DNA from: Candidatus Omnitrophota bacterium
GTDB taxonomy: Bacteria > Omnitrophota > Gorgyraeia > JABMRG01 > JAFGKX01
Length of the DNA stretch: 64,000 nucleotides
Reading direction: 5' to 3'
Assembly (NCBI GenBank): GCA_043797125.1
Contig: JAZDPX010000012.1
Coordinates: 24,376 to 88,375, forward strand
Both the position numbers and the translations under genes were made by a program. The notes below the pieces were generated by a model that worked only from the letters and a program-made list of their open reading frames with translations, made no database searches and had not been told where the DNA came from. This document shows positions 43,728 through 55,590 of this stretch, piece after piece (position 1 is the stretch's first letter; each line of letters starts with the position of its first letter).

Positions 43728-44665
43728 GTCGTAAGCCTAAAAAATTATTTTTTGTTTTTTACTGCTTAATTTGCGCCTTTTTATCGGCAGGTTGTCAAAA
43801 TAAACGCCTCTATACAGAAACCTGCATTGCCATGGGAACATTTATAGAGGTAAAATCCCCGCACAAAGAAGCCGCAGGCATTGTCTTTAAAGAGATAAAA
43901 AGAATAGAGAGCCTGTTAAGCAAATATAATCCGGAAAGTGAAGTCTCAAGGTTAAATAAATCCGGCGCATTAAATGTAAGCCCCGAGACATTTTTTGTGG
44001 TGAAAAAATCAAAGGAATTCTGGCAGGCAACCGGCGGCGCGTTTGATATCACTGTTAGCCCCCTGATAGACCTTTGGGGGTTTACCGATAAAAAATATAA
44101 TGTGCCGGCAAAAGAGGAAATTGAGAATACGCTGAAGCTTATCGGGTCAGATAAAATTATTTTAGAAGACAAAGACAATACGATAAAATTCTCAACTTTC
44201 GGGATGAAGATAGACTTAGGCGCTGTTGCTAAGGGCTATGCCCTTGATTGCGCAAAAAATAAACTAAAACAGGCAGGAATAGAAAATTGCCTATTAAATG
44301 CGGGCGGACAAGTATTTGCATTGGGAAATAATTACGGCTTACCATGGAGAGTTGCCATTAGGGGAGCGCGCGAAAATAAATTTGCCGGATATTTAGAACT
44401 GGAAAATAAATCTGTTTCCACGTCCGGAGATTACGAGCAGTTTTTCCTTGAAGGTAATAAGCGTTATGCGCATATTATAGACCCTAAAACCGGCTATCCC
44501 GTTGACTCTGACGTTGTTTCAGTTACGGTGGTTGCCGAAGACGGCTTAACCGCCGATGTTCTTTCAACCGCAATTTTTGTATTAGGCAAAGAAAAAGGCA
44601 AAAGCCTGGCCAAGAAGTTTCCGGATACAAAAGTGAAAATAATAGTAACAGTTCAGCCACAATAA
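43724..44665 (+). CDS. apbE: FAD:protein FMN transferase ApbE (lipoprotein)
   Basis: Lipobox LSAGC. ApbE motifs GGAFDITV and GAVAKGYALD. Start at 43724 overlaps the upstream stop as ATGA. Confidence 0.8.
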   Translation: MSRKPKKLFFVFYCLICAFLSAGCQNKRLYTETCIAMGTFIEVKSPHKEAAGIVFKEIKRIESLLSKYNPESEVSRLNKSGALNVSPETFFVVKKSKEFWQATGGAFDITVSPLIDLWGFTDKKYNVPAKEEIENTLKLIGSDKIILEDKDNTIKFSTFGMKIDLGAVAKGYALDCAKNKLKQAGIENCLLNAGGQVFALGNNYGLPWRVAIRGARENKFAGYLELENKSVSTSGDYEQFFLEGNKRYAHIIDPKTGYPVDSDVVSVTVVAEDGLTADVLSTAIFVLGKEKGKSLAKKFPDTKVKIIVTVQPQ

Positions 44666-44678
44666 GTATCTCGACTCG

Positions 44679-44710
44679 GACGTAGCGGAGGCTTAAGCCT
44701 CCGCTACGTC
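44679..44710. repeat. perfect hairpin GACGTAGCGGA-GGCTTAAGCC-TCCGCTACGTC (GGCTTAAGCC REP-like family)
   Basis: Same GGCTTAAGCC core and GTAGSGC arms as hairpins at about 36788-36816 and 38378-38406. Confidence 0.6.
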
Positions 44711-44772
44711 GGGAGGCCTTCCAATAGCTGAGCTATTACAAATAATAAGTTCTACTAGAACATAAAGAGTAA

Positions 44773-45003
44773 ATGGAAAAAGTATCTTTAATTAAACTTA
44801 AGCCAAATCATAAAGGAAAAATTTCTGAGATTTCAGGGGGCGTGGCTCTTCAAAGAAGGCTTATGAATTTAGGTATATATAAAGGCAGAGAAGTTACCAA
44901 GCTTAGCCATATCGGTTTAAGAGGCCCTGTTGTAATGAGGGTTGGCAGGAGCATCCTTGCTTTAGGGCATGGCATGGCATCAAAAATTATATTGGAAAAA
45001 TAA
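44773..45003 (+). CDS. feoA: ferrous iron transport protein A
   Basis: 76-aa FeoA SH3-like domain. Immediately precedes feoB. Confidence 0.8.
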   Translation: MEKVSLIKLKPNHKGKISEISGGVALQRRLMNLGIYKGREVTKLSHIGLRGPVVMRVGRSILALGHGMASKIILEK

Positions 45004-46727
45004 TGATAAAGAAGATTTATCTTATCGGCAATCCCAACGTAGGTAAGAGCGTGGTATTTTCGCGCCTCACAGGCGTTCAGGCAATATCTTCTAATTATCC
45101 CGGCACAACCGTAGAAATAACCAAAGGCTATCTGAAATTAGGCGAAGATAAAATTGAGGTTGTAGACCTGCCCGGGACCTATTCGCTTGAGCCTTCTTCT
45201 TCAGCGGAAGAAGCGGCAGTGTCTTTGCTGAAAGAATATCCAAAAGAAGAGATAGCGGTAATCAACATTATCGACGCTACTAATCTTGAGAGAAATTTAC
45301 TCCTGACTTTGCAGTTGCTGGAGCAGGGGTATCCGGTAATAGTTTGCCTTAATATGTGCGATGACGCCGGGCACAGGGGCATACACATAGATTTCCAAAA
45401 GCTGGAAAAACTCCTGGGCGTTGCAGTTATTCCTACCTGCGCAGTAACGGGCTCAGGGATAAAATCATTAATCAGCAGGATACAGGAGGCAGAGCCTGCA
45501 TTAATAGATAAACTCGTTTCTGAGGCGCGCTGGCTTGAAATAGGCAAAATTGTTGAGCAGGTCCAGCGATTAGAACACAGGCACCATACCCTAAGAGAAT
45601 TATTGGAGGATGCGTCTGTCAGGCCTTTATCAGGCCTTTTGATGGCTGCGGGCGTAATTTACGCCTCATTTAAAATTGTGCGCTTTGTTGGAGAGTTTAT
45701 CGTTAACAGGATAACCGACCCTGTCTTTATTAATTTTGTAAAACCCCTTTTGGAAAAATTGACCCTTCATTGGCAGGAGGAAGGGTTCTGGTTTCACCTT
45801 TTAATCGGCGACTTGATAAACGGCAAAATTGATTTTAAGCAATCCCTCGGCGTGCTTACAACAGCCCCTTACATTGAATTCGGCATGGTCTTGCCTTATA
45901 TGATATCATTCTATTTTATCTTAAGCCTTTTGGAAGATATCGGATATCTGCCGCGTCTGGCAATACTTCTGGATAATGTTTTGCACCAGTTGGGCTTACA
46001 TGGTTTTGCAATTATTCCCGTGCTCTTGGGCTTCGGTTGCAATGTCCCGGGCATCTTAGCAACGCGGTCTCTTGAATCCAAACGCGAAAGGCTCATCGCG
46101 TCGACCGTTATTTCCATAGGCGTGCCATGCGTTCCGCTGCAGGCAATGATTTTCGGCTTGCTGGGTAAATTCGGAGGATTTTACGTAGGCGGTGTATATC
46201 TGGTTTTATTCAGCCTGATTTTAATATTGGGGATTATTTTAAACAGCGCGCTCAAAGGCTATAGCCCGGAATTTCTGTTGGAGATTCCGCCATACAGGCT
46301 TCCTCCGTTGAATGTCCTGTTAAAAAAATTATACTTTCGCATCAAGGCCTTTTTAATCGAGGCAGTGCCCGTAGTGCTTATCGGCGTTATGGTTGTAAAT
46401 ATACTCATATACTTTAAGCTTTTTGATATAGTGACCGGCATATTCGCCCCCGTGGTCAATGGTTTATTTGGCCTGCCAAAGCAGGCTATAGCCGCTCTTA
46501 TTATCGGATTCTTAAGAAAAGATGTTGCTGTCGGAATGCTGATGCCGTTGGGCTTATCTGCTAAGCAACTGTTTATCGCGGCAACGTTATTGGCAATATC
46601 GTTTCCGTGCATTGCCACGTTTATTGTTTTATGGAAAGAGCTGGGCATGAAAGATTTAATAAAATCAACGCTTATCATGATATCTGTCAGCGTAATAGTC
46701 GGGACAATGCTTAATTTTTTTATATAG
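45003..46727 (+). CDS. feoB: ferrous iron transport protein B
   Basis: N-terminal G-domain IYLIGNPNVGKS...DLPGTYSL followed by a polytopic permease domain. Confidence 0.9.
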   Translation: MIKKIYLIGNPNVGKSVVFSRLTGVQAISSNYPGTTVEITKGYLKLGEDKIEVVDLPGTYSLEPSSSAEEAAVSLLKEYPKEEIAVINIIDATNLERNLLLTLQLLEQGYPVIVCLNMCDDAGHRGIHIDFQKLEKLLGVAVIPTCAVTGSGIKSLISRIQEAEPALIDKLVSEARWLEIGKIVEQVQRLEHRHHTLRELLEDASVRPLSGLLMAAGVIYASFKIVRFVGEFIVNRITDPVFINFVKPLLEKLTLHWQEEGFWFHLLIGDLINGKIDFKQSLGVLTTAPYIEFGMVLPYMISFYFILSLLEDIGYLPRLAILLDNVLHQLGLHGFAIIPVLLGFGCNVPGILATRSLESKRERLIASTVISIGVPCVPLQAMIFGLLGKFGGFYVGGVYLVLFSLILILGIILNSALKGYSPEFLLEIPPYRLPPLNVLLKKLYFRIKAFLIEAVPVVLIGVMVVNILIYFKLFDIVTGIFAPVVNGLFGLPKQAIAALIIGFLRKDVAVGMLMPLGLSAKQLFIAATLLAISFPCIATFIVLWKELGMKDLIKSTLIMISVSVIVGTMLNFFI

Positions 46728-46739
46728 GAGGGAGCAGGT

Positions 46740-47591
46740 ATGTTTAGGAAATTATTGTTTATTTTAATTATTATTGCCTTCGCAAGTTCTGCGTTTGCCG
46801 CCAGAGGTAAAAATTCGATACAAGTCAAAGGTTCGGATACCATGGTTAATTTAGGCCAGGCCTGGGCTGAAAAATTTATGGAGAAAAACCCGGGCTATTT
46901 TGTGGCAGTTACAGGCGGAGGCTCAGGCACAGGGCTTTCAAGCCTTATAAGCGGCACCTGCGATATTACTATGAGCTCAAGAAACATCAAAGAAAAGGAA
47001 ATCGGCCTTGCCAAACAGAAAGGCGTAAATCCCAATGAAATAAAAGTAGCGTTAGACGGCCTTGCTGTCGTGGTAAACCCGGGCAATCCCGTGACTAAGC
47101 TTACCGTGGCCAAACTGGCAGGTATTTTTACCGGGAGAATCTCTAACTGGAAAGAAGTCGGCGGTAGAGATGAAAGAATAGTGATACTTTCACGCGAGGT
47201 TAACTCAGGAACCCATGTTTATTTTAAGGAACACATATTAAGAGGCAACGACCCTAACAGCAAAGAAGAATTCGCGCCGGCAGCTTTAATGCTTTCATCT
47301 TCCCAGGCAATTGCCGATGAGGTAGCTGGAAATTCCGCCGCTATCGGATATTATGGAATGGGCTATATTTCAAAAAACCAAAAACCATTAGCCATAGCAG
47401 TAGATGAAAATTCAGAATATGTAGCGCCCGCAACGGAAAACGTCATAAACGGTAAATACCCTGTTTTAAGGCCGTTGTTTCTTTATACCAACGGCACGCC
47501 GCAAGCGCAGGTAAAAAAATTTATAGATTTTGCGCTTTCCGAAGAAGGCCAGGATATTGTCTTAGAAACTGATTTTGTGCCTGTTAAATAG
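46740..47591 (+). CDS. pstS: phosphate ABC transporter substrate-binding protein
   Basis: Signal peptide plus PBP motif KGSDTMVNL...GGGSGTG. Confidence 0.85.
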   Translation: MFRKLLFILIIIAFASSAFAARGKNSIQVKGSDTMVNLGQAWAEKFMEKNPGYFVAVTGGGSGTGLSSLISGTCDITMSSRNIKEKEIGLAKQKGVNPNEIKVALDGLAVVVNPGNPVTKLTVAKLAGIFTGRISNWKEVGGRDERIVILSREVNSGTHVYFKEHILRGNDPNSKEEFAPAALMLSSSQAIADEVAGNSAAIGYYGMGYISKNQKPLAIAVDENSEYVAPATENVINGKYPVLRPLFLYTNGTPQAQVKKFIDFALSEEGQDIVLETDFVPVK

Positions 47592-48474
47592 TTTGAAGTT
47601 GAAAGCCGTGAATAAGGTAAAAGAATTTATAATTGAAAAATTAATCTTTGTTTGTGGGTTAGTTTCCGTTTTTTTTGTGGTATTAATTTTTCTTTTTCTG
47701 CTTAAAGAAGGGCTTGCGTTATTTAGGACCGCAGGCCCTTTAAAGTTTCTTTTTGGCAGGAACTGGTATCCTATTTCCGAACCGCCTCAGTTGGGAATAC
47801 TTCCGTTAATTCTCGGTTCATTATTTGTTACTTTAGGGGCAGCTATTATTTCTATCCCTATCGGGGTCGGGTGCGCGGTTTTCATCGCAGAAATAGCCCC
47901 CTTAAAAATCAAGGAGGCGCTCAAGGCAGGCATAGAATTGCTGGCAGCTATACCAAGCGTTGTCTTGGGATTTATCGGCATGGTGACCCTTGTGCCTTTG
48001 GTAAAAGGAGTTTTTCACCTGCCGACAGGGCTGACCGCATTGTCAGGGTCTGTAATGCTGGCATTTATGGCTATGCCCACAATAGTTTCAATAGCGGAGG
48101 ATGCGCTATATTCGGTCCCAAAGATATATAAAGAAGGCGCTCTCGCGCTTGGGGCGACGCGTTGGCAAATGATATGGCGGGTAATGCTTCCGGCTGCATC
48201 AAGCGGCATACTTGCGGCGGTCATGCTTGGGATAGGCAGGGTAATAGGCGAGACCATGGCGGTAATGATGATTACAGGCAATGCTGCGGTTATGCCGAAA
48301 AGCATTTTGGCGCCTGTCAGAACATTGACCGCTACCATTGCCGCTGAAATGGGCGAGGCTGTGATGGGCAGCGAACATTATTTTGCTTTGTTTGCCATTG
48401 GTATAGTTTTATTTGTTATCAGTTTTGCCATTAATGTAACCGCGGACTTATTTTTACACAAAAGGCAGGGATGA
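47575..48474 (+). CDS. pstC: phosphate ABC transporter permease PstC
   Basis: Six-TM BPD_transp_1 permease in pst operon context. Confidence 0.85.
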   Translation: MCLLNSLKLKAVNKVKEFIIEKLIFVCGLVSVFFVVLIFLFLLKEGLALFRTAGPLKFLFGRNWYPISEPPQLGILPLILGSLFVTLGAAIISIPIGVGCAVFIAEIAPLKIKEALKAGIELLAAIPSVVLGFIGMVTLVPLVKGVFHLPTGLTALSGSVMLAFMAMPTIVSIAEDALYSVPKIYKEGALALGATRWQMIWRVMLPAASSGILAAVMLGIGRVIGETMAVMMITGNAAVMPKSILAPVRTLTATIAAEMGEAVMGSEHYFALFAIGIVLFVISFAINVTADLFLHKRQG

Positions 48475-49319
48475 AAAACCCTTATAGAACACAAAATATC
48501 GCATTTTCACTTTTGTTCTTAGCGACGCTTTTAATAGTAATCCCTGTAGGCTTAATCGTCGTCGTTATTATACAGAAAGGGTTACCCGCAATTAACTGGC
48601 AGTTTCTTTCGGATATGCCGCGGCAAGGAATGCGTGCAGGCGGTATATTCCCGGCAATTATAGGAACGATATATTTGGTGACGGGCGCTATTGTTTTTGC
48701 TCTGCCGATAGGGCTTCTTGCGGCAATATACTTAACCGAATACGCAAAAGATAACCTGCTTACGCGCCTTATAAAATTGGCAATCGTCAACCTTGCAGGA
48801 GTGCCTTCTGTGGTTTACGGGCTTTTTGGCCTGGCGCTTTTTGTGGTATTTCTTAAATTCGGAGTATCGATTATTTCCGGCTCTCTTACCCTCGGGATTA
48901 TGATTCTTCCCGTCATTATTACTACTTCGCGCGAGGCCCTGGAAAGCGTGCCGCATTCATTTCGCGAAGTAAGCCTGTCTTTAGGCGCAAGCAAATGGCA
49001 GACCGTAAGGCACATTGTCCTTCCCAGCGCCGTACCGGGCATATTAACCGGAACTATTTTAGGTTTAGGAAGGGCGGCTGGAGAAACAGCTCCTATTCTT
49101 TTTACTGTCGCGGCTTTCTACCTGCCGCAATTGCCCAATTCTATCTTTGATCAGGCGATGGCGTTGCCCTACCATCTCTATGTCATCTCAACACAGGTGC
49201 CTAATGTCGATGAGAAGATAAGGTATGGGACAGCGTTTGTCTTGCTAACATTGGTTTTATTTATGAACCTAGTGGCGATAATAATACGCTATAAGTTTAG
49301 AAAGAAAAAGAAATGGTAG
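48471..49319 (+). CDS. pstA: phosphate ABC transporter permease PstA
   Basis: Six-TM permease with EAA-like loop, in pst operon. Confidence 0.85.
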   Translation: MKNPYRTQNIAFSLLFLATLLIVIPVGLIVVVIIQKGLPAINWQFLSDMPRQGMRAGGIFPAIIGTIYLVTGAIVFALPIGLLAAIYLTEYAKDNLLTRLIKLAIVNLAGVPSVVYGLFGLALFVVFLKFGVSIISGSLTLGIMILPVIITTSREALESVPHSFREVSLSLGASKWQTVRHIVLPSAVPGILTGTILGLGRAAGETAPILFTVAAFYLPQLPNSIFDQAMALPYHLYVISTQVPNVDEKIRYGTAFVLLTLVLFMNLVAIIIRYKFRKKKKW

Positions 49320-49326
49320 CGCTGCA

Positions 49327-50070
49327 ATGAAATTTAAGATACGCGATCTGAATATTTGGTTTGGCTGTGTGCGCGCCATAAAGCAATTGAACATGGAAAT
49401 TCAGGCCAATGAAATTCTAAGCATAATAGGGCCTTCAAACAGCGGGAAAACGACTTTCTTGCGGGCGCTCAACCGCCTTAACGATCTCAACGCGGATTTT
49501 AAAATAAAAGGAACAATAGAGTTTGAAAAAAAAGATATCCGCGCGGTTGAGGTAGGAGAATTGCGGCGCAAGATAGGCATGGTATTCGCGCTGCCGTTGC
49601 CTTTGCCGTTATCCATATTTGATAATGTAGCCTACGGGCTAAGAATGTCCGGCGAAAGAAAAGCCAGCAACTTGGAAAATAAGGTAAAAGAGGCATTGAA
49701 TCAGGCGCATCTTTGGGATGAAGTAAAAGACAGATTAAACGAATCAGCTTTTAAATTATCAGGAGGCCAGCAGCAGCGCCTCTGTATCGCAAGGACGTTG
49801 GCGGTAGGGCCCGAGGTAATTCTGTTTGACGAACCCTGCTCGGGGCTTGATCCCATTTCCACGGCAAAAGTGGAAGATGCAATGATTAAGCTCAAAGAAA
49901 AATACACGATAGTTTTGGTAACCAATAACGTAAAGCAGGCCGCGAGGGTAGGAGATAAAACAGCGTTCTTTTTAAGCGGCGAGCTCGTTGAGTTGGACAG
50001 GACCGATAAGATTTTTACCGCTCCGCAAGACAAGCGCACGAACGATTACATAATAGGAAAATTCGGCTGA
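49327..50070 (+). CDS. pstB: phosphate ABC transporter ATP-binding protein PstB paralog 1 (intact LSGGQ; Q-loop Gln and H-loop His substituted)
   Basis: Walker A GPSNSGKT, signature LSGGQQQRL, Walker B ILFDEP. Q-loop position reads MVFALPLP. H-loop reads VTNN instead of VTHN. Confidence 0.9.
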
Positions 50071-50825
50071 TGGTAAAAATTACAACTAAAAATCTAAACC
50101 TTTGGTATGGCGCTTTTCATGCCTTAAAGAACATAAACTCGAGCTTTGAGGCAAATAGAATTACGGCCATAATCGGGCCTTCGGGGTGCGGCAAATCCAC
50201 CCTGCTTAGAGTCTTCAACCGGATGAACGACTTAATAGACGGGGTGCGCACCGACGGCGAAGTTTTAATAGACGATACAAATATCCTGAATTCCCACACA
50301 GATTTGGTGTTTCTACGCAAAAAGGTAGGGATGGTATTCCAGCGGCCCAATCCATTTCCTTTGTCAATTTATGAAAATATTGTTTTTGGGCAAAAGATTC
50401 ATGCCGACAGCATAACCAGAGGCGCATTGAATACAATTGTGGAGGCAAGCCTGAGGGACGTCCTTCTGTGGGATGAATTGAAGGACAGGCTTAATAAGCC
50501 TGCCTTGATGTTGTCGCTGGAGCAGAAACAAAGGCTTTGCATTGCGCGGCTTATTGCCGTTAAACCCGACGTATTATTAATGGATGAGCCCTGTTCCGCC
50601 CTGGACCCGCAGGCAACCGCAAGGGTCGAAGAATTGATGCGTGAACTGAGGAACAGGTACACCATAATAATAGTCACCCATAATATGCAGCAGGCAGCGC
50701 GCGTTTCGGATAATACGGGTTTTATGCTTTTAGGCGAGTTGATAGAATTTGGAAAAACACAAGAAATATTTACTGCTCCGTCTGATAAACGCACGGAAGA
50801 TTACATTACCGGAAGATACGGATGA
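50070..50825 (+). CDS. pstB: phosphate ABC transporter ATP-binding protein PstB paralog 2 (canonical Walker A/Q/H; degenerate signature LSLEQ)
   Basis: Walker [11 protein letters not shown]-loop [10 protein letters not shown], Walker B LLMDEP, H-loop [11 protein letters not shown]. Signature position reads LSLEQKQRL. Confidence 0.9.
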
Positions 50826-50828
50826 AAA

Positions 50829-50875
50829 GTCCCTCGGAAGCTCTTATTCATCGCTTCCTCGGGACGATTTTTGTT
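50829..50875 (+). terminator. rho-independent terminator after pstB2
   Basis: GTCCCTCGGAAGC...GCTTCCTCGGGAC stem followed by GATTTTTGTT. Confidence 0.55.
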
Positions 50876-50897
50876 CCACAAAAATCGGAGGCCAAAC

Positions 50898-51563
50898 ATG
50901 GAAAGACATGTTGACCACGAACTAAAAGAACGCAAAGCAGATATGTTAAGGAGGGGCGCTTTGGCGGAAGAGGCCATCTATAAATCAATTGAGGCGCTGA
51001 AGAACCGGGATAAGGCTGCGGCGGAATCCGTTATAGACGACGATTCCAATATCGATAAATTAGAATTGGCCGTGGATGAAAAATGCATTGATTTGATAGC
51101 GCGCTATCAACCCATGGCTCGTGACCTTCGCTTTATCGCAACCGGTATGAAAATAAACGCCGAGCTTGAAAGGATAGCGGATATTGCGGTGGATATAGCT
51201 CAGCGTACGCTTGAAATCGTGGATAAACCTTTGTTAAAACCGTTAATCGATATACCCAAGATAACTACCATTGCTCAAAACATGGTCAAGATGTCCATTG
51301 ACGCGTTCGTCAAAGGCGACAGCGCCCTAGCCAAAAAAGTCTTATTATCCGATACCGAAGCTGATCAGCTTCGTAATGCTATACAAAAGGAACTCATCGA
51401 GGATTACATGGCCAAAGACGGCAGCACTGCGTCGAGGGCGGTTCAATTACTGCTGATAGCCCGTTTTTTGGAGCGCATATGCGATCATGCTACCAATATA
51501 GCGGAAGATGTGATATATATGGTTCAGGCAGAAGTTGTAAGGCATCATCCCGAGAAGATTTGA
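50898..51563 (+). CDS. phoU: phosphate signalling complex protein PhoU
   Basis: Two PhoU repeats. RBS GGAGG before ATG 50898. The ORF-track TTG start at 50871 lies in the terminator. Confidence 0.85.
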   Translation: MERHVDHELKERKADMLRRGALAEEAIYKSIEALKNRDKAAAESVIDDDSNIDKLELAVDEKCIDLIARYQPMARDLRFIATGMKINAELERIADIAVDIAQRTLEIVDKPLLKPLIDIPKITTIAQNMVKMSIDAFVKGDSALAKKVLLSDTEADQLRNAIQKELIEDYMAKDGSTASRAVQLLLIARFLERICDHATNIAEDVIYMVQAEVVRHHPEKI

Positions 51564-51576
51564 AGGAGGAATAAAG

Positions 51577-52233
51577 ATGAATAATAAAGAGCGGGTATCC
51601 GCCATGCAGAAATTGAGAAAGGATTTTTTAGCCGGCATAGCTATTATTTTTCCGATAGCGGTTACGGCATATATTTTAATCATAGCCTTTAAATTCGCGG
51701 ATGGAATTTTAGGCAAGGCGCTAAACAGGTATATACATTATTATTTTGGCTACAAGATCCCAGGAATAGGTATTGTGCTGGGAGTGCTTTTAGTGCTATT
51801 CACAGGAATGCTTGCCAATCGTTTTATCGGCATAAAATTGTTTCCGGTTTTGGAGCGCTTTATAATAAAACTGCCGATTCTGCGGCATATCTATGCGCCG
51901 GCAAAACAGCTCTCGAATTTTTTCTTTAAAAACAATAAAGATTCTGTGTTCAACAGGGTTGTCCTGGTTCCGTATCCGAACGACGATACCTATTCAATAG
52001 GGTTCATGACAAACGATGAATTATCCGAAATTGACGCAAAATTAGGTAAAAAGATTGTGTCAGTGCTTATTTCAACGCCGCCATCGCCTTTTAGCGGGCC
52101 TATTATTTTTGTTCCAAAAGAAAAGGTAAAGCCGCTTGATTTATCCATGGAAGAGGCGATTAAATTTATCGTGTCAGGGGGATTGATTGCCCCTAACAGG
52201 TATCTTAACAAGAATAAAGAAAACATAATATGA
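51577..52233 (+). CDS. DUF502-family membrane protein
   Basis: Two N-terminal TM helices. Sequence pattern resembles DUF502. Assigned by eye. Confidence 0.5.
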   Translation: MNNKERVSAMQKLRKDFLAGIAIIFPIAVTAYILIIAFKFADGILGKALNRYIHYYFGYKIPGIGIVLGVLLVLFTGMLANRFIGIKLFPVLERFIIKLPILRHIYAPAKQLSNFFFKNNKDSVFNRVVLVPYPNDDTYSIGFMTNDELSEIDAKLGKKIVSVLISTPPSPFSGPIIFVPKEKVKPLDLSMEEAIKFIVSGGLIAPNRYLNKNKENII

Positions 52234-53930
52234 TTTATCATATAGTTCTTATTGCCGTAGTATTTTTCATACTGGCTTTTCGTTTTTACGGCTCTTTTTT
52301 AGCCAAAAAATTTCAGGTTGAGGATTCTTCACCCACGCCTGCCTGCCAGATAAATGATGGCATAGATTACGTCCCTGCAAAACCTGCCTTGCTTTTAGGC
52401 CAGCATTTTTCAGCTATTGCCGCAGCCGGGCCAATTGTAGGGCCTATTCTTGCCTGCATCTGGTTTGGCTGGGTACCTGCGCTTTTATGGATTGTGTTAG
52501 GCGCGGTTTTTATAGGCGGCGTGCATGATTTCGGCAGTTTATTCGCGTCGCTTAAGCACAAGGCAGCATCTATAGGAGAAATTGTCAAGGATAACATGCC
52601 AAGGGTCTATAAATTATTTCTTGTCTTCGTGTGGCTTGCGCTGGTTTATGTCATTATTGCCTTTACCGATATTACCGCGCACACTTTTAAGACAACTGTC
52701 GGGGGCGAGGCCTTTGGTCCGGCAGTGGCAGGCTCATCAGCTCTCTATCTTTTGGCAGCAATTGCAATGGGAATTTTATTATACCGTTTTAAAATCAGGC
52801 TTTGGCTGGCGACATTAATATTTTTACCTTTAATATTATTTATTATCTGGGCAGGGCCGCGCCTGCCGCAGCCTATATTAACTTCCTTGTCAGGAATTTC
52901 AGTCAAGCAATGGGATGCGATACTTTTGGTTTACTGCCTGGCAGCGTCTTTGTTCCCTGTGTGGCTTTTATTGCAGCCGCGAGGGTATTTAGGCGGCTGG
53001 TTTTTATATCTGGTTATTTTAATCGGGTTAATCGGGGCTGTCTTTGGCGGATTTCGCATAGAATATCCCGCTTTTAACTTAAGCGGATTAAAAAGCGCGG
53101 ATAATGCCAAATCAATTTTTCCTGTATTGTTTATTACCGTTGCCTGCGGCGCTGTTTCAGGATTTCACGGTATTGTTTCATCAGGCACTACCTCAAAACA
53201 GGTCTGCAAATATAAGGATAGTTTGCCCATTGGTTACGGCACGATGCTTTTAGAGGGGTTAGTAGCGGTTCTGGCGATAGCTACGGTGATTATGTTGCCA
53301 AAAGGTTCGCAGATTTTGAAATCCGACCCGAATTTAATTTATGCGCAAGGCCTTGCCCGCTATTTAGGTTTGCTGAAAATAAATTACGGGCTGGCTTTAG
53401 CTTTTGCGCTTTTGGCATTTTCCACTTTTGTGTACGACACGCTGGATGTCTGCACAAGGCTGGCGCGCTATATTTTCCAGGAATTAACAGGATGGAAATC
53501 AAGGCAAGGCGGATTTATAGCCGCTCTTATCAGCCTTATTATCCCTTTTGTTTTCCTTATGTTTACCGAGGAAAAGGGCTATCTTGTGGCGTGGCCTATT
53601 TTTGGCACATCAAATCAGCTTTTGGCCAGTTTGATATTATTGGCAATTTCAGTATGGCTGATTAAATCAGGGAAAAGGCCTTTTTATGTAATTTTACCGA
53701 TGTTATTTATGATGGTAATGACTATCTGGTCATTGTTTAGCTTGGTTGTTCCTTTTATCAGCAGCTTACCAGCAATATTACAGGGTGAAACAAGCGCTGA
53801 TATTTTAATTTCAGGCATTTGCGCAGTTGCGCTTTTGGCTTTAAGCCTTACGTTAATTTACGAGGCAGCCATATCGCTTATGGGCAATGGAAACAGTAAA
53901 GGCATTAAACAAGGAGCAAAAGTTTCTTAA
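52230..53930 (+). CDS. cstA: carbon starvation protein CstA-family transporter
   Basis: Polytopic, about 16 TM helices. N-terminus VVFFILAFRFYGSFLAKKF is CstA-like. Confidence 0.8.
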   Translation: MIYHIVLIAVVFFILAFRFYGSFLAKKFQVEDSSPTPACQINDGIDYVPAKPALLLGQHFSAIAAAGPIVGPILACIWFGWVPALLWIVLGAVFIGGVHDFGSLFASLKHKAASIGEIVKDNMPRVYKLFLVFVWLALVYVIIAFTDITAHTFKTTVGGEAFGPAVAGSSALYLLAAIAMGILLYRFKIRLWLATLIFLPLILFIIWAGPRLPQPILTSLSGISVKQWDAILLVYCLAASLFPVWLLLQPRGYLGGWFLYLVILIGLIGAVFGGFRIEYPAFNLSGLKSADNAKSIFPVLFITVACGAVSGFHGIVSSGTTSKQVCKYKDSLPIGYGTMLLEGLVAVLAIATVIMLPKGSQILKSDPNLIYAQGLARYLGLLKINYGLALAFALLAFSTFVYDTLDVCTRLARYIFQELTGWKSRQGGFIAALISLIIPFVFLMFTEEKGYLVAWPIFGTSNQLLASLILLAISVWLIKSGKRPFYVILPMLFMMVMTIWSLFSLVVPFISSLPAILQGETSADILISGICAVALLALSLTLIYEAAISLMGNGNSKGIKQGAKVS

Positions 53931-54911
53931 ATGGATCTAGTTCTAGTAGGTTCAATTTTATTGATGGCTATTGCAGTAGGATGGTCAATAGGCGCAAACG
54001 ACGCAGCTAATTCTTTAGGCACTGCAGTTGGCTCAAGAGTGTTGACATTGCGTCAGGCGATTATTCTGATCAGCGTCTTTGGTTTTCTCGGAGCATTTCT
54101 GCAGGGCGCTCATGTAACCAAAACCATTGGTAAAGGCATTGTAGCCATTGATAAATTAGACAAAGACGCGGCTTTGTATTTAGCTTTAGTCGCTTGTTTC
54201 GCTACTTGCGCGTGGGTAATATTGGCTACTTACTGGAAGATGCCTATCTCTACCAGTCACTCTATTGTTGGCGCAGTGGCAGGCGCAGGCATTGCTATAC
54301 ACGAGCCGCTTAAATGGAAAGTCCTTTTTGACATATTTCTTTGCTGGGTGTTTACCCCTGTCGGCGCGGCTGTTTTAGGGTATCTGTTTTACCGGATTTT
54401 TAAAATTATATTTTACAAGTTTTTTCCGCGCAAATACCTGAAGCAAACTTTAACGGTTTTGATAATTGTAAGCGGCTGTTATGTTTCTTATACATGGGGA
54501 GCAAACGATGTTGCTAATGCAACCGGAGTTATTGCTGGCGCAGGGGTGCTTACGCCGACAACGAGCGTGATCCTGGGCGGCCTGGCAATAGCCTTAGGCA
54601 TTATAACATGGGGATATAAAGTTATTGAAACAATCGGCGTGCGCATAACATCGCTTTTGCCGATTATGGCGTTTTCAGCGCAATTAGCCAGCGCTATTAA
54701 CGTCCATGTTTACACCATTTTTGGCATACCTGTTTCTACAAGCCATTCTATTGTAGGTGCGATTTTCGGCGTGGGATTAGTCAGGGGCGTCAGGGCTGTT
54801 AATATGCATATCTTAAAGGAAATAATTGTCTGCTGGTTAGCTACGCCGTTTATTTCCGGGGTAATCAGTTTTTTACTTTTAAAGGGTATTGCGATTTTTA
54901 TAAAAATATAG
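53931..54911 (+). CDS. inorganic phosphate transporter, PiT (PHO4) family
   Basis: Duplicated GANDVAN signature (GANDAANSLGTAVGS and GANDVANATG). Confidence 0.85.
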   Translation: MDLVLVGSILLMAIAVGWSIGANDAANSLGTAVGSRVLTLRQAIILISVFGFLGAFLQGAHVTKTIGKGIVAIDKLDKDAALYLALVACFATCAWVILATYWKMPISTSHSIVGAVAGAGIAIHEPLKWKVLFDIFLCWVFTPVGAAVLGYLFYRIFKIIFYKFFPRKYLKQTLTVLIIVSGCYVSYTWGANDVANATGVIAGAGVLTPTTSVILGGLAIALGIITWGYKVIETIGVRITSLLPIMAFSAQLASAINVHVYTIFGIPVSTSHSIVGAIFGVGLVRGVRAVNMHILKEIIVCWLATPFISGVISFLLLKGIAIFIKI

Positions 54912-54921
54912 GAGGAATAAA

Positions 54922-55590
54922 ATGAAGGAGAGAAGGAATTTTTTAGGCTGGCTTGAAATGGCGGAGGAACAATCAATTCTACAGGATGCCCAGAAGCATG
55001 TAGATGAAACCTACAAGACAGTTACATATTTTGCCGAGGCGATTAAGGCGTTTATTCAGGGCGACCTTAATGCCAAGGCCGCCGCAATTGAAAGCGTGAG
55101 AAAAAGCGAGCACGAAGCGGATATACTAAGGTCTAAAATGGTAAAGGAGCTATCAGAGGGCATATTCATGCCGCCTGACAGAGAAGAGATGATGCGTTTT
55201 GTCAGGACCCTGGATAAGATTGCTGACTGGACAAACGGGGCTGCCAGGATTTTGGGATTTATCGAGCATAAAATCCCGGAACCAATCTTGCAGAATATCT
55301 CAAGTGCCGCAGGATTGATTTTTAATTCAATTAGCAGTCTCAAAGAGGCTATTAAGGCCTTAACCAAAAATGACTTAAAAAACGCGTTAGCCAGCTGCGA
55401 AGATGTTGATAGAATCGAGCACGATGCCGATGACCAGAAAAAAGTCTTAATCGAGTCAATTATACACGCTAAGCTTGAGCCGACAAGCCTTTTACTATGT
55501 TATCAATTGGCAGAATATATGGAAGGCGTAACAGATAAAATAGAAGACGCGGCTGATTTTGTTAAGATTACTGCTATAAAATCGAAATAA
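54922..55590 (+). CDS. PhoU-like DUF47 protein (Pit accessory/regulatory protein)
   Basis: Helical bundle with PhoU-like repeats. Immediately downstream of the PiT gene, as is typical for DUF47. Confidence 0.65.
   Translation: MKERRNFLGWLEMAEEQSILQDAQKHVDETYKTVTYFAEAIKAFIQGDLNAKAAAIESVRKSEHEADILRSKMVKELSEGIFMPPDREEMMRFVRTLDKIADWTNGAARILGFIEHKIPEPILQNISSAAGLIFNSISSLKEAIKALTKNDLKNALASCEDVDRIEHDADDQKKVLIESIIHAKLEPTSLLLCYQLAEYMEGVTDKIEDAADFVKITAIKSK

Follow-up and report, generated by a model that had tools for sequence, protein, structure and literature searches.

Complementary motif changes in a conserved tandem PstB pair predict a phosphate importer with one consensus ATP site

Two non-equivalent pstB genes in one operon

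The 64,000-nucleotide stretch of a Candidatus Omnitrophota contig that we analysed (hereafter the window) carries a pst phosphate import operon at 46740-51563, in which all genes lie on the forward strand in the order pstS-pstC-pstA-pstB1-pstB2-phoU. Two adjacent genes, pstB1 (49327-50070, 247 aa) and pstB2 (50070-50825, 251 aa), are encoded alongside pstS, pstC, pstA and phoU, and their ATPase products are altered in complementary ways: PstB1 has an intact signature motif and an altered catalytic half, and PstB2 has a canonical catalytic half and a degenerate signature. When compared with NCBIfam models, the operon genes exceed their own cutoffs for pstS, the periplasmic phosphate-binding protein (46740-47591; TIGR02136, 268 bits vs 206.6), the permeases pstC (47575-48474; TIGR02138, 296 bits vs 196) and pstA (48471-49319; TIGR00974, 302 bits vs 193), pstB2, and the phosphate signalling complex protein phoU (50871-51563; TIGR02135, 190 bits vs 130). 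This is the architecture of a type I importer, with nucleotide-binding domains (NBDs) made as free proteins, separate permeases of the BPD_transp_1 type and a binding protein, and with no fusion of a transmembrane domain (TMD) to an NBD. The pstB1 stop codon overlaps the pstB2 start codon in a TGATG at 50068-50072 (forward strand; in relatives the genes overlap by 1 or 4 nt, or are separated by a 3-nt gap), which suggests that the two genes are translationally coupled. No other PstB-like gene is found in the 64 kb window besides these two. Two antisense open reading frames (ORFs) within the pstB genes (49701-50039 and 50399-50794, minus strand) were discarded as mechanical ORFs without support.

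For both proteins, TIGR00972 is the best family by far. With an equivalog cutoff of 343.2 bits for PstB in this model, PstB2 scores above it (370.3 bits) and PstB1 below it by about 3 bits (340.1), which probably explains why PstB1 bears the generic public name "phosphate ABC transporter ATP-binding protein" while its partner is named PstB. No NCBIfam model singles out the PstB1-type clade. An NCBI protein whose annotation assigns it to a Candidatus Omnitrophota metagenome-assembled genome (MAG) has 100% identity to PstB1, and all of the genome loci nearest to the window also come from Omnitrophota MAGs. The two subunits share 48% identity with each other, and 46% (PstB1) and 58% (PstB2) with PstB of Escherichia coli. 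In a phmmer search of solved structures, the best match of both was E. coli PstB (PDB 9k3x; E=8e-76 for PstB1 and E=4e-95 for PstB2), and neither alignment has a gap inside any motif. This bears on the motif assignments of the initial annotation, which had been made from the letters alone and for which an alignment to E. coli PstB had been proposed as a check. The deposited chain of a hydrolysis-dead E. coli protein (9k3s) differs from the wild type by E179Q, exactly at the position aligned with the Walker B glutamate, which confirms the Walker B assignment independently; this substitution largely abolishes ATPase activity (PMC12976172). Motif misassignment is thus ruled out. PstB1 was modelled by AlphaFold2 with high confidence (pLDDT 95.1), and the model matches chain 9k3x_C best, with a TM score of 0.95 and a root-mean-square deviation of 1.1 A, which argues that PstB1 is a well-folded NBD and no remnant.

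To describe the motifs of PstB1 across its clade, 241 PstB1-type proteins (120 from Omnitrophota and 121 of a Planctomycete type) were counted on one alignment. In the A-loop region of the window protein (WFG, 49357-49365), Phe12 aligns with Tyr20 of E. coli; Phe occupies this position in 118/120 Omnitrophota PstB1, and the position is aromatic (Tyr, Phe or His) in 106/121 Planctomycete-type proteins. The Walker A motif reads GPSNSGKTT (aa 35-43, 49429-49455), with Asn for the second consensus glycine and with Lys41 and Thr42 kept. This Asn is present in 119/120 Omnitrophota PstB1 and Gly stands there in 93/121 Planctomycete-type sequences, so that the Gly-to-Asn change is Omnitrophota-specific and not clade-wide; the Walker A lysine is found in all 241. 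Two catalytic residues are lost throughout the clade: the Q-loop (MVFALP, 49579-49596) has Ala88 in place of Gln, with Ala or Ser in 241/241, and the H-loop (VTNN, 49918-49929) has Asn200 in place of the switch His, with Asn again in 241/241. The LSGGQ signature (aa 144-148, 49756-49770), on the other hand, is intact in the window and in 240/241, and so are the Asp and the catalytic Glu of Walker B (VILFDE, 49816-49833; Asp168 and Glu169, the latter aligned with E. coli E179), which are kept in 241/241. The D-loop (SGLD, 49840-49851) carries a clade-specific Gly (237/241) for the canonical Ala, which is present in 36/44 canonical PstB.

PstB2 shows the converse picture. Walker A (GPSGCGKST, 50175-50201), the Q-loop (MVFQRP, 50331-50348) with its Gln, Walker B (VLLMDE, 50571-50588) and the H-loop (VTHN, 50673-50684) with its His are all canonical, and the D-loop is SALD, but the signature reads LSLEQ (aa 148-152, 50511-50525), with Leu-Glu in place of Gly-Gly. 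Among 120 close PstB2 relatives, canonical Walker A, Q-loop Gln, Walker B Asp-Glu and H-loop His are found in 120/120, and Leu-Glu at both glycine positions also in 120/120 when counted on the alignment (LSLEQ in 118/120 by regular expression). Neither subunit thus carries a full set of catalytic motifs: PstB1 departs from it at the Q-loop, at the H-loop and, with a variant motif, at Walker A, and PstB2 at the signature (LSLEQ). The motif states that the initial annotation had read from the sequence each held on alignments free of gaps within the motifs.

The same complementarity emerged when positions at least 85% conserved in canonical PstB were screened for a fixed replacement in each clade (E. 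coli numbering). Five positions are replaced in both PstB1 groups, namely C47 and S50 (Walker A), Q98 and F103 (Q-loop) and H210. In Omnitrophota PstB1, Y20 (A-loop, to Phe), T39, A40, G46 and L195 are replaced as well, and in the Planctomycete-type proteins S45. In PstB2, the replaced positions are G156 and G157, together with two nearby positions of the helical subdomain.

Conservation, pairing and genomic setting

The initial annotation had proposed to check whether relatives carry the same paired substitutions, and they do: the substitutions are fixed in 120/120 close PstB1 and 118/120 PstB2 relatives, and the pairing recurs in 24/24 informative loci. In the 120 close relatives of PstB1 (77-83% identity), Q-loop Ala, H-loop Asn and SGLD are present in 120/120, and LSGGQ in 118 by a regular-expression count. 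A search with PstB1 against representatives clustered at 50% identity gave a top match at only 56% identity and did not isolate the family cleanly; it did return more distant PstB1-type proteins as well as signature-degenerate proteins, and these were used as seeds for later searches. A profile built from the distant PstB1-type proteins then recovered 117 further sequences, including proteins from Planctomycetes and Planctomycetia MAGs. In these, the Q-loop residue is Ala or Ser in all, the H-loop His is replaced by Asn in all (with the exact string VTNN in 115), LSGGQ is found in 116 and the Walker B Asp-Glu in all. When plasmids were searched by tblastn with a Planctomycete PstB1, the only matches were below 60% identity and annotated as pstB or phosphate ABC ATP-binding protein, with motifs looked at in one of them only (H11); one Bacillus locus from this search (L139) has a single canonical pstB and no tandem pair.

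The two altered genes also occur together. Besides the window, 24 related loci were informative, meaning that enough sequence was available downstream of the PstB1-type gene, and they include other Omnitrophota, a Planctomycetia MAG and untyped metagenome contigs. In all 24, a PstB2 gene with a degenerate signature comes next after the PstB1-type gene, and the order is always B1-B2. In seven Omnitrophota-type genome loci (62-82% identity), the next gene encodes LSLEQ or LTLEQ; in the Planctomycetia MAG GCA_020849035.1, where the operon reads pstS-C-A-B1-B2-phoU-phoB-phoR, the partner has LSAEQ; and on one further contig it has LSGEQ. A metagenome scan added 15 informative PstB1-type genes, 15 of them with a degenerate partner (LSLEQ, LTLEQ, LSPEQ, LAPEQ, LPMDQ or LSGEQ), whereas each of the 58 canonical loci in the same scan has a single canonical pstB. 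Conversely, a signature-degenerate neighbour of a canonical pstB was seen in 0 of about 70 loci. Where no partner of a PstB1-type gene was visible, the gene lay at a contig end or the partner was truncated. The partner signatures at other loci are LSAEQ, LSGEQ, LSPEQ, LAPEQ, LTLEQ and LPMDQ; the second glycine is replaced by an acidic residue (E or D) in the window PstB2 and in nearly all partners. This pattern is far beyond chance. The asymmetric pair spans at least Omnitrophota and Planctomycetota; the documented taxa of the clade are Omnitrophota and Planctomycetes/Planctomycetia only, and the other members are metagenome contigs.

To ask about the age of the pair without circularity, neighbour-joining trees were bootstrapped after all motif columns had been removed. 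A PstB1-type clade was recovered in 82 of 100 bootstraps and a PstB2-type clade in 78, and PstB1 and PstB2 were sisters in 0. The distances between PstB1 orthologues correlate with the distances between their PstB2 partners (r=0.72). Together, the separate clades and the correlated distances indicate that the pair is old and has been inherited as a unit, and each member would have arisen once within this sampling, as judged from the trees. In comparisons of orthologues, the proportion of synonymous differences (pS) was 0.65-0.96 for both genes and therefore saturated, against a proportion of non-synonymous differences (pN) of 0.08-0.26, and the ratio of non-synonymous to synonymous rates (dN/dS) was 0.04-0.09 where dS could be estimated. 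Saturated synonymous change with low non-synonymous change points to strong purifying selection on both genes.

These data leave practically no room for a scenario that had been put forward as one that could overturn the initial annotation, in which relatives have a single canonical pstB and the tandem copies are recent, with one or both of them decaying. Only the non-consensus residues themselves speak for such decay. Against it, neither ORF is disrupted, hundreds of relatives down to about 46-50% identity share these fixed substitutions, and non-synonymous change is low where synonymous sites are saturated; moreover, the two proteins form separate clades and are never sisters. On conservation, purifying selection and phylogeny we therefore reject a pseudogene or recent duplicate, and the opposite of that scenario is what the relatives display.

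Several related loci depart from the two-gene arrangement and are described here in their own right. An Omnitrophota MAG contig (JBAZEP010000040.1; L002:1-7365) has two pst units back to back. In the first unit, a fragment of a permease gene is accompanied by a pstB that is canonical throughout (561-1322) and by an ORF of 354 aa (1315-2379) in which two PhoU domains are fused to a low-molecular-weight phosphatase/ArsC-like domain (PF01895 + PF01451), and the asymmetric pstSCAB1B2-phoU operon comes next. Canonical and asymmetric Pst motors thus coexist in one genome, and the asymmetric Pst may be specialised and not a simple replacement. On a Logan contig of 142 kb (SRR9674389_1869; L140:1465-3765), three PstB-like genes stand in tandem after pstC-pstA. 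Of these, the first resembles PstB1 (MVAPLP, VTNL, LSGGQ) and the second PstB2, combining LQLEQ with a catalytic half that is canonical; the third is degenerate on both halves, with a Walker A Lys-to-Arg change (GPLGSGRTT), the signature LNRGL and the H-loop ATND. A lone pstB follows pstA on metagenome contig Ga0265595_1006577 (L123:2314-3072), with GPAHSGRST at Walker A (Lys-to-Arg), Ala in the Q-loop and a Walker B Glu-to-Ala change (LLDAP); the 3 kb downstream of it hold no second pstB, an ORF of 137 aa on the minus strand separates pstC from pstA, and the gene looks like a catalytically dead single PstB on its motifs. A variant class at three loci (L094:1244-1987, L097:644-1399 and L119:1790-2536) combines Asp in the Q-loop (MVFD[LV]P), VPHN or APHN at the H-loop and a non-consensus Walker A with an intact LSGGQ, and no second pstB was detected on the sequence available for them. 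Finally, two single-copy pstB genes in ordinary pstC-pstA-pstB(-phoU) operons have LSIGQ (L137:1962-2783) or LTADE together with MVFD (L138:3001-3786), so deviation of the PstB signature is not confined to heterodimeric pairs.

Upstream of the operon in the window, on the same strand, a feoB gene (FeoB_N, Gate and FeoB_C domains; entry 45003-46740) ends 12 nt before the pstS start. A scan of 44500-55500 for promoters and terminators gave counts not above those of shuffled sequence and is uninformative on operon boundaries; with no convincing promoter or terminator between feoB and pstS, the iron and phosphate transport genes may be co-transcribed. Within the operon, the ORF listed for pstC begins with a TTG and shares 17 nt with the end of pstS (47575-47591), and its true start may be further downstream. 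Directly 3' of phoU, on the same strand, three further membrane or transport genes abut or overlap one another (51577-54911). The first (51577-52233) encodes a membrane protein of the DUF502 family, the second (52230-53930) the carbon-starvation transporter CstA and the third (53931-54911) a phosphate transporter of the PiT/PHO4 family. The last of these, near the pst operon, means that genes for high-affinity and secondary phosphate uptake are clustered.

Predicted assembly and ATP sites

In E. coli PstSCAB, each ATP is held between the Walker A/B motifs of one PstB and the LSGGQ of the other, and PstA and PstC carry one PstB each (PMC12976172). When placed in this geometry, the catalytic-motif changes described above map to a single composite site. 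The initial annotation had predicted that the complementary defects would give one complete and one altered site in a head-to-tail dimer, and the alignments bear this out, with a catalytic half altered in PstB1 and a signature half altered in PstB2, so that the second site would be altered on both of its sides.

We consider it likely, from the motifs and their conservation, that PstB1 and PstB2 form an obligate heterodimer of one PstSCA-B1B2 importer, with one consensus site that hydrolyses ATP and a second site that binds ATP and hydrolyses it slowly or not at all. One of the two subunits would dock on PstC and the other on PstA. Site 1 would combine Walker A, Walker B, the Q-loop Gln and the H-loop His of PstB2 with the LSGGQ of PstB1; it would be fully canonical and hydrolyse ATP. 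Site 2 would combine Walker A and Walker B of PstB1, without the Q-loop Gln and the H-loop His, with the LS-x-(E/D)-Q signature of PstB2; it would probably keep its nucleotide bound, with slow hydrolysis or none, and play a structural or allosteric role. Such a pump would spend about one ATP per cycle.

The strongest internal argument for this heterodimer is that LSGGQ is kept in 240/241 PstB1-type proteins although their own Gln and His are gone in 241/241, which argues that the signature serves a competent partner. A homodimer of PstB1 would have no Gln and no His at both sites and a homodimer of PstB2 would have LSLEQ at both, so only the heterodimer offers a complete site. Nucleotide binding at site 2 itself appears to be under selection, given that PstB1 keeps the Walker A Lys/Thr, the Walker B Asp-Glu and, for the most part, an A-loop aromatic residue. 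For a type I importer one intact site can be enough, as shown for the histidine permease HisP2MQJ (cited in PMC3971661).

Some observations weigh against this proposal. The catalytic Glu of PstB1 is kept in 241/241, so that residual or rewired hydrolysis at site 2 is possible, and it is the loss of this residue that has been called a hallmark of degenerate sites (PMC7544095). The single-copy pstB genes with LSIGQ (L137) or with LTADE and MVFD (L138) sit in otherwise normal pst operons, and a deviant signature alone is consequently no proof of a dead site. An extra canonical pstB stands beside the asymmetric operon in the relative with two pst units (L002). In Enterococcus faecalis, excess PstB2 can replace PstB1 (PMC12096839), which indicates that PstB paralogues can sometimes act as homodimers.

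These points feed into other readings of the pair. The heterodimer might turn over ATP at both sites and spend two per cycle, the Ala, Asn and Glu replacements being tolerated or rewired; the Walker B Glu of PstB1 and the Glu supplied in trans by the partner signature could, for example, compensate for the missing His and Gln. The invariant catalytic Glu, Walker A Lys and Walker B Asp of PstB1 (241/241) would fit this, as would the acidic second signature position of the partner across the clade and the existence of single-copy PstBs with deviant signatures. We nevertheless regard it as unlikely: three independent contributors to one and the same composite site (Q-loop Gln, H-loop His and the glycines of the opposing signature) are replaced together and fixed, and conserved Walker A and B motifs are just as typical of degenerate sites that only bind ATP. 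In addition, replacing the H-loop His in HlyB, HisP or MalK removes almost all of their ATPase activity, and CFTR G551D, an acidic residue at the second signature glycine, abolishes ATP-dependent gating. A variant that we hold to be quite unlikely on the sequence evidence would have site 2 repurposed, either as an allosteric site that senses nucleotide or phosphate or as a slow timer, and in this role it would gate the single active site and perhaps PhoU/PhoR signalling. It would draw on the retention of the Walker A Lys, the Walker B Asp-Glu and the adenine-stacking aromatic residue together with the gain of an invariant acidic residue from the partner signature. If true, phosphate uptake and Pho signalling would be coupled to the cellular energy or phosphate status, and a type I importer whose degenerate site serves regulation would be conserved across Omnitrophota and Planctomycetota.

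More radically, PstB1 could be a pseudo-ATPase devoted to signalling or regulation, for instance with PhoU or PhoR, leaving a PstB2 homodimer to drive transport despite its LSLEQ. That homodimer would have two altered signatures, and the perfect LSGGQ of PstB1 would be left without a role unless it closed on the ATP of its partner. Strict co-location, a fixed gene order, translational coupling and co-inheritance all speak for joint function instead, and the modelled fold of PstB1 is indistinguishable from that of a transporter-bound PstB. With these set against a PstB1 score under the PstB equivalog cutoff (340.1 vs 343.2), deviant single-copy PstBs in complete operons, a phoU gene directly downstream and the accessory nature of one E. 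faecalis paralogue (PMC12096839), we find a pseudo-ATPase very unlikely. An obligate PstB1-PstB2 heterodimer with one consensus site is hence the reading that we carry into the comparisons below.

Significance and relation to known systems

The number of ATP molecules used per cycle by type I importers is still debated: one intact site is enough in HisP2MQJ and reportedly not enough in MalK2. If the heterodimer holds, the pair would show that a type I importer with only one canonical site exists in nature and has been stable in evolution, and this in the high-affinity phosphate system that is known best; it would provide a test case for the ATP-to-substrate stoichiometry and for the contribution of a non-hydrolytic site. 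Because Pst feeds the Pho regulon via PhoU, the asymmetry of the motor may also have effects on how Omnitrophota and Planctomycetota signal their phosphate status. Pathway reconstructions that count both genes as redundant copies would miss what is probably an obligate pair. The consensus/degenerate principle is familiar to specialists of ATP-binding cassette (ABC) proteins and reviews discuss degenerate sites as an exporter trait (PMC3971661, PMC7756269); in the literature searched, we found no paper connecting PstB with either a degenerate or a consensus site, and none describing a conserved asymmetric PstB pair in a phosphate importer.

The closest reference is E. coli PstSCAB (9k3x, 9k3s; PMC12976172), which has the same operon, subunits, fold and ATP sandwich geometry but two identical PstB, with two ATP at two equivalent canonical sites, one PstB on PstA and the other on PstC. 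The initial annotation had called the asymmetry unusual for Pst importers, and measured against this structurally characterised system it is. Tandem pstB genes as such are known from Firmicutes, where E. faecalis (PstB1/PstB2) and Bacillus subtilis (PstBA/PstBB) likewise have two adjacent copies in a pst(-phoU) operon. The two E. faecalis copies are non-equivalent (PMC12096839), and the B. subtilis proteins have been modelled as a heterodimer on PstCA (PMC11466899). However, both E. faecalis copies have identical canonical motifs (PMC12096839), whereas the Omnitrophota copies are unlike each other in four motifs (Walker A, Q-loop, signature and H-loop). Importers with one predicted degenerate ATP site are also known in RbsA, NupO and other CUT2-type ATPases (PMC11466899), but there the NBDs are fused in one polypeptide and the Walker A Lys is lost, and substrate class, transporter type and family are all different.

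The likeness that the initial annotation had drawn to TAP, CFTR and TM287/288 stands as a functional analogy, and fails for the Walker B catalytic Glu, which PstB1 keeps. Like the PstB pair, the exporters and channels TM287/288, TmrAB, BmrCD, PatAB, TAP1/TAP2, CFTR, MRP1 and SUR have two non-identical NBDs that build one consensus and one altered site. There too, catalytic-half changes fall on one NBD and signature changes on the other, and the degenerate NBD has its H-loop His replaced and its Walker A Lys kept. These proteins are, however, type IV exporters or channels with the NBD fused to the TMD, whereas the PstB pair belongs to a type I importer with free NBDs, and beyond the shared ABC ATPase fold there is no homology between the two. 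The exporters usually lose the Walker B catalytic Glu (PMC7544095), whereas PstB1 keeps this Glu and loses the Q-loop Gln instead, together with the H-loop His; the PstB pair would thus have taken a different route to a degenerate site.

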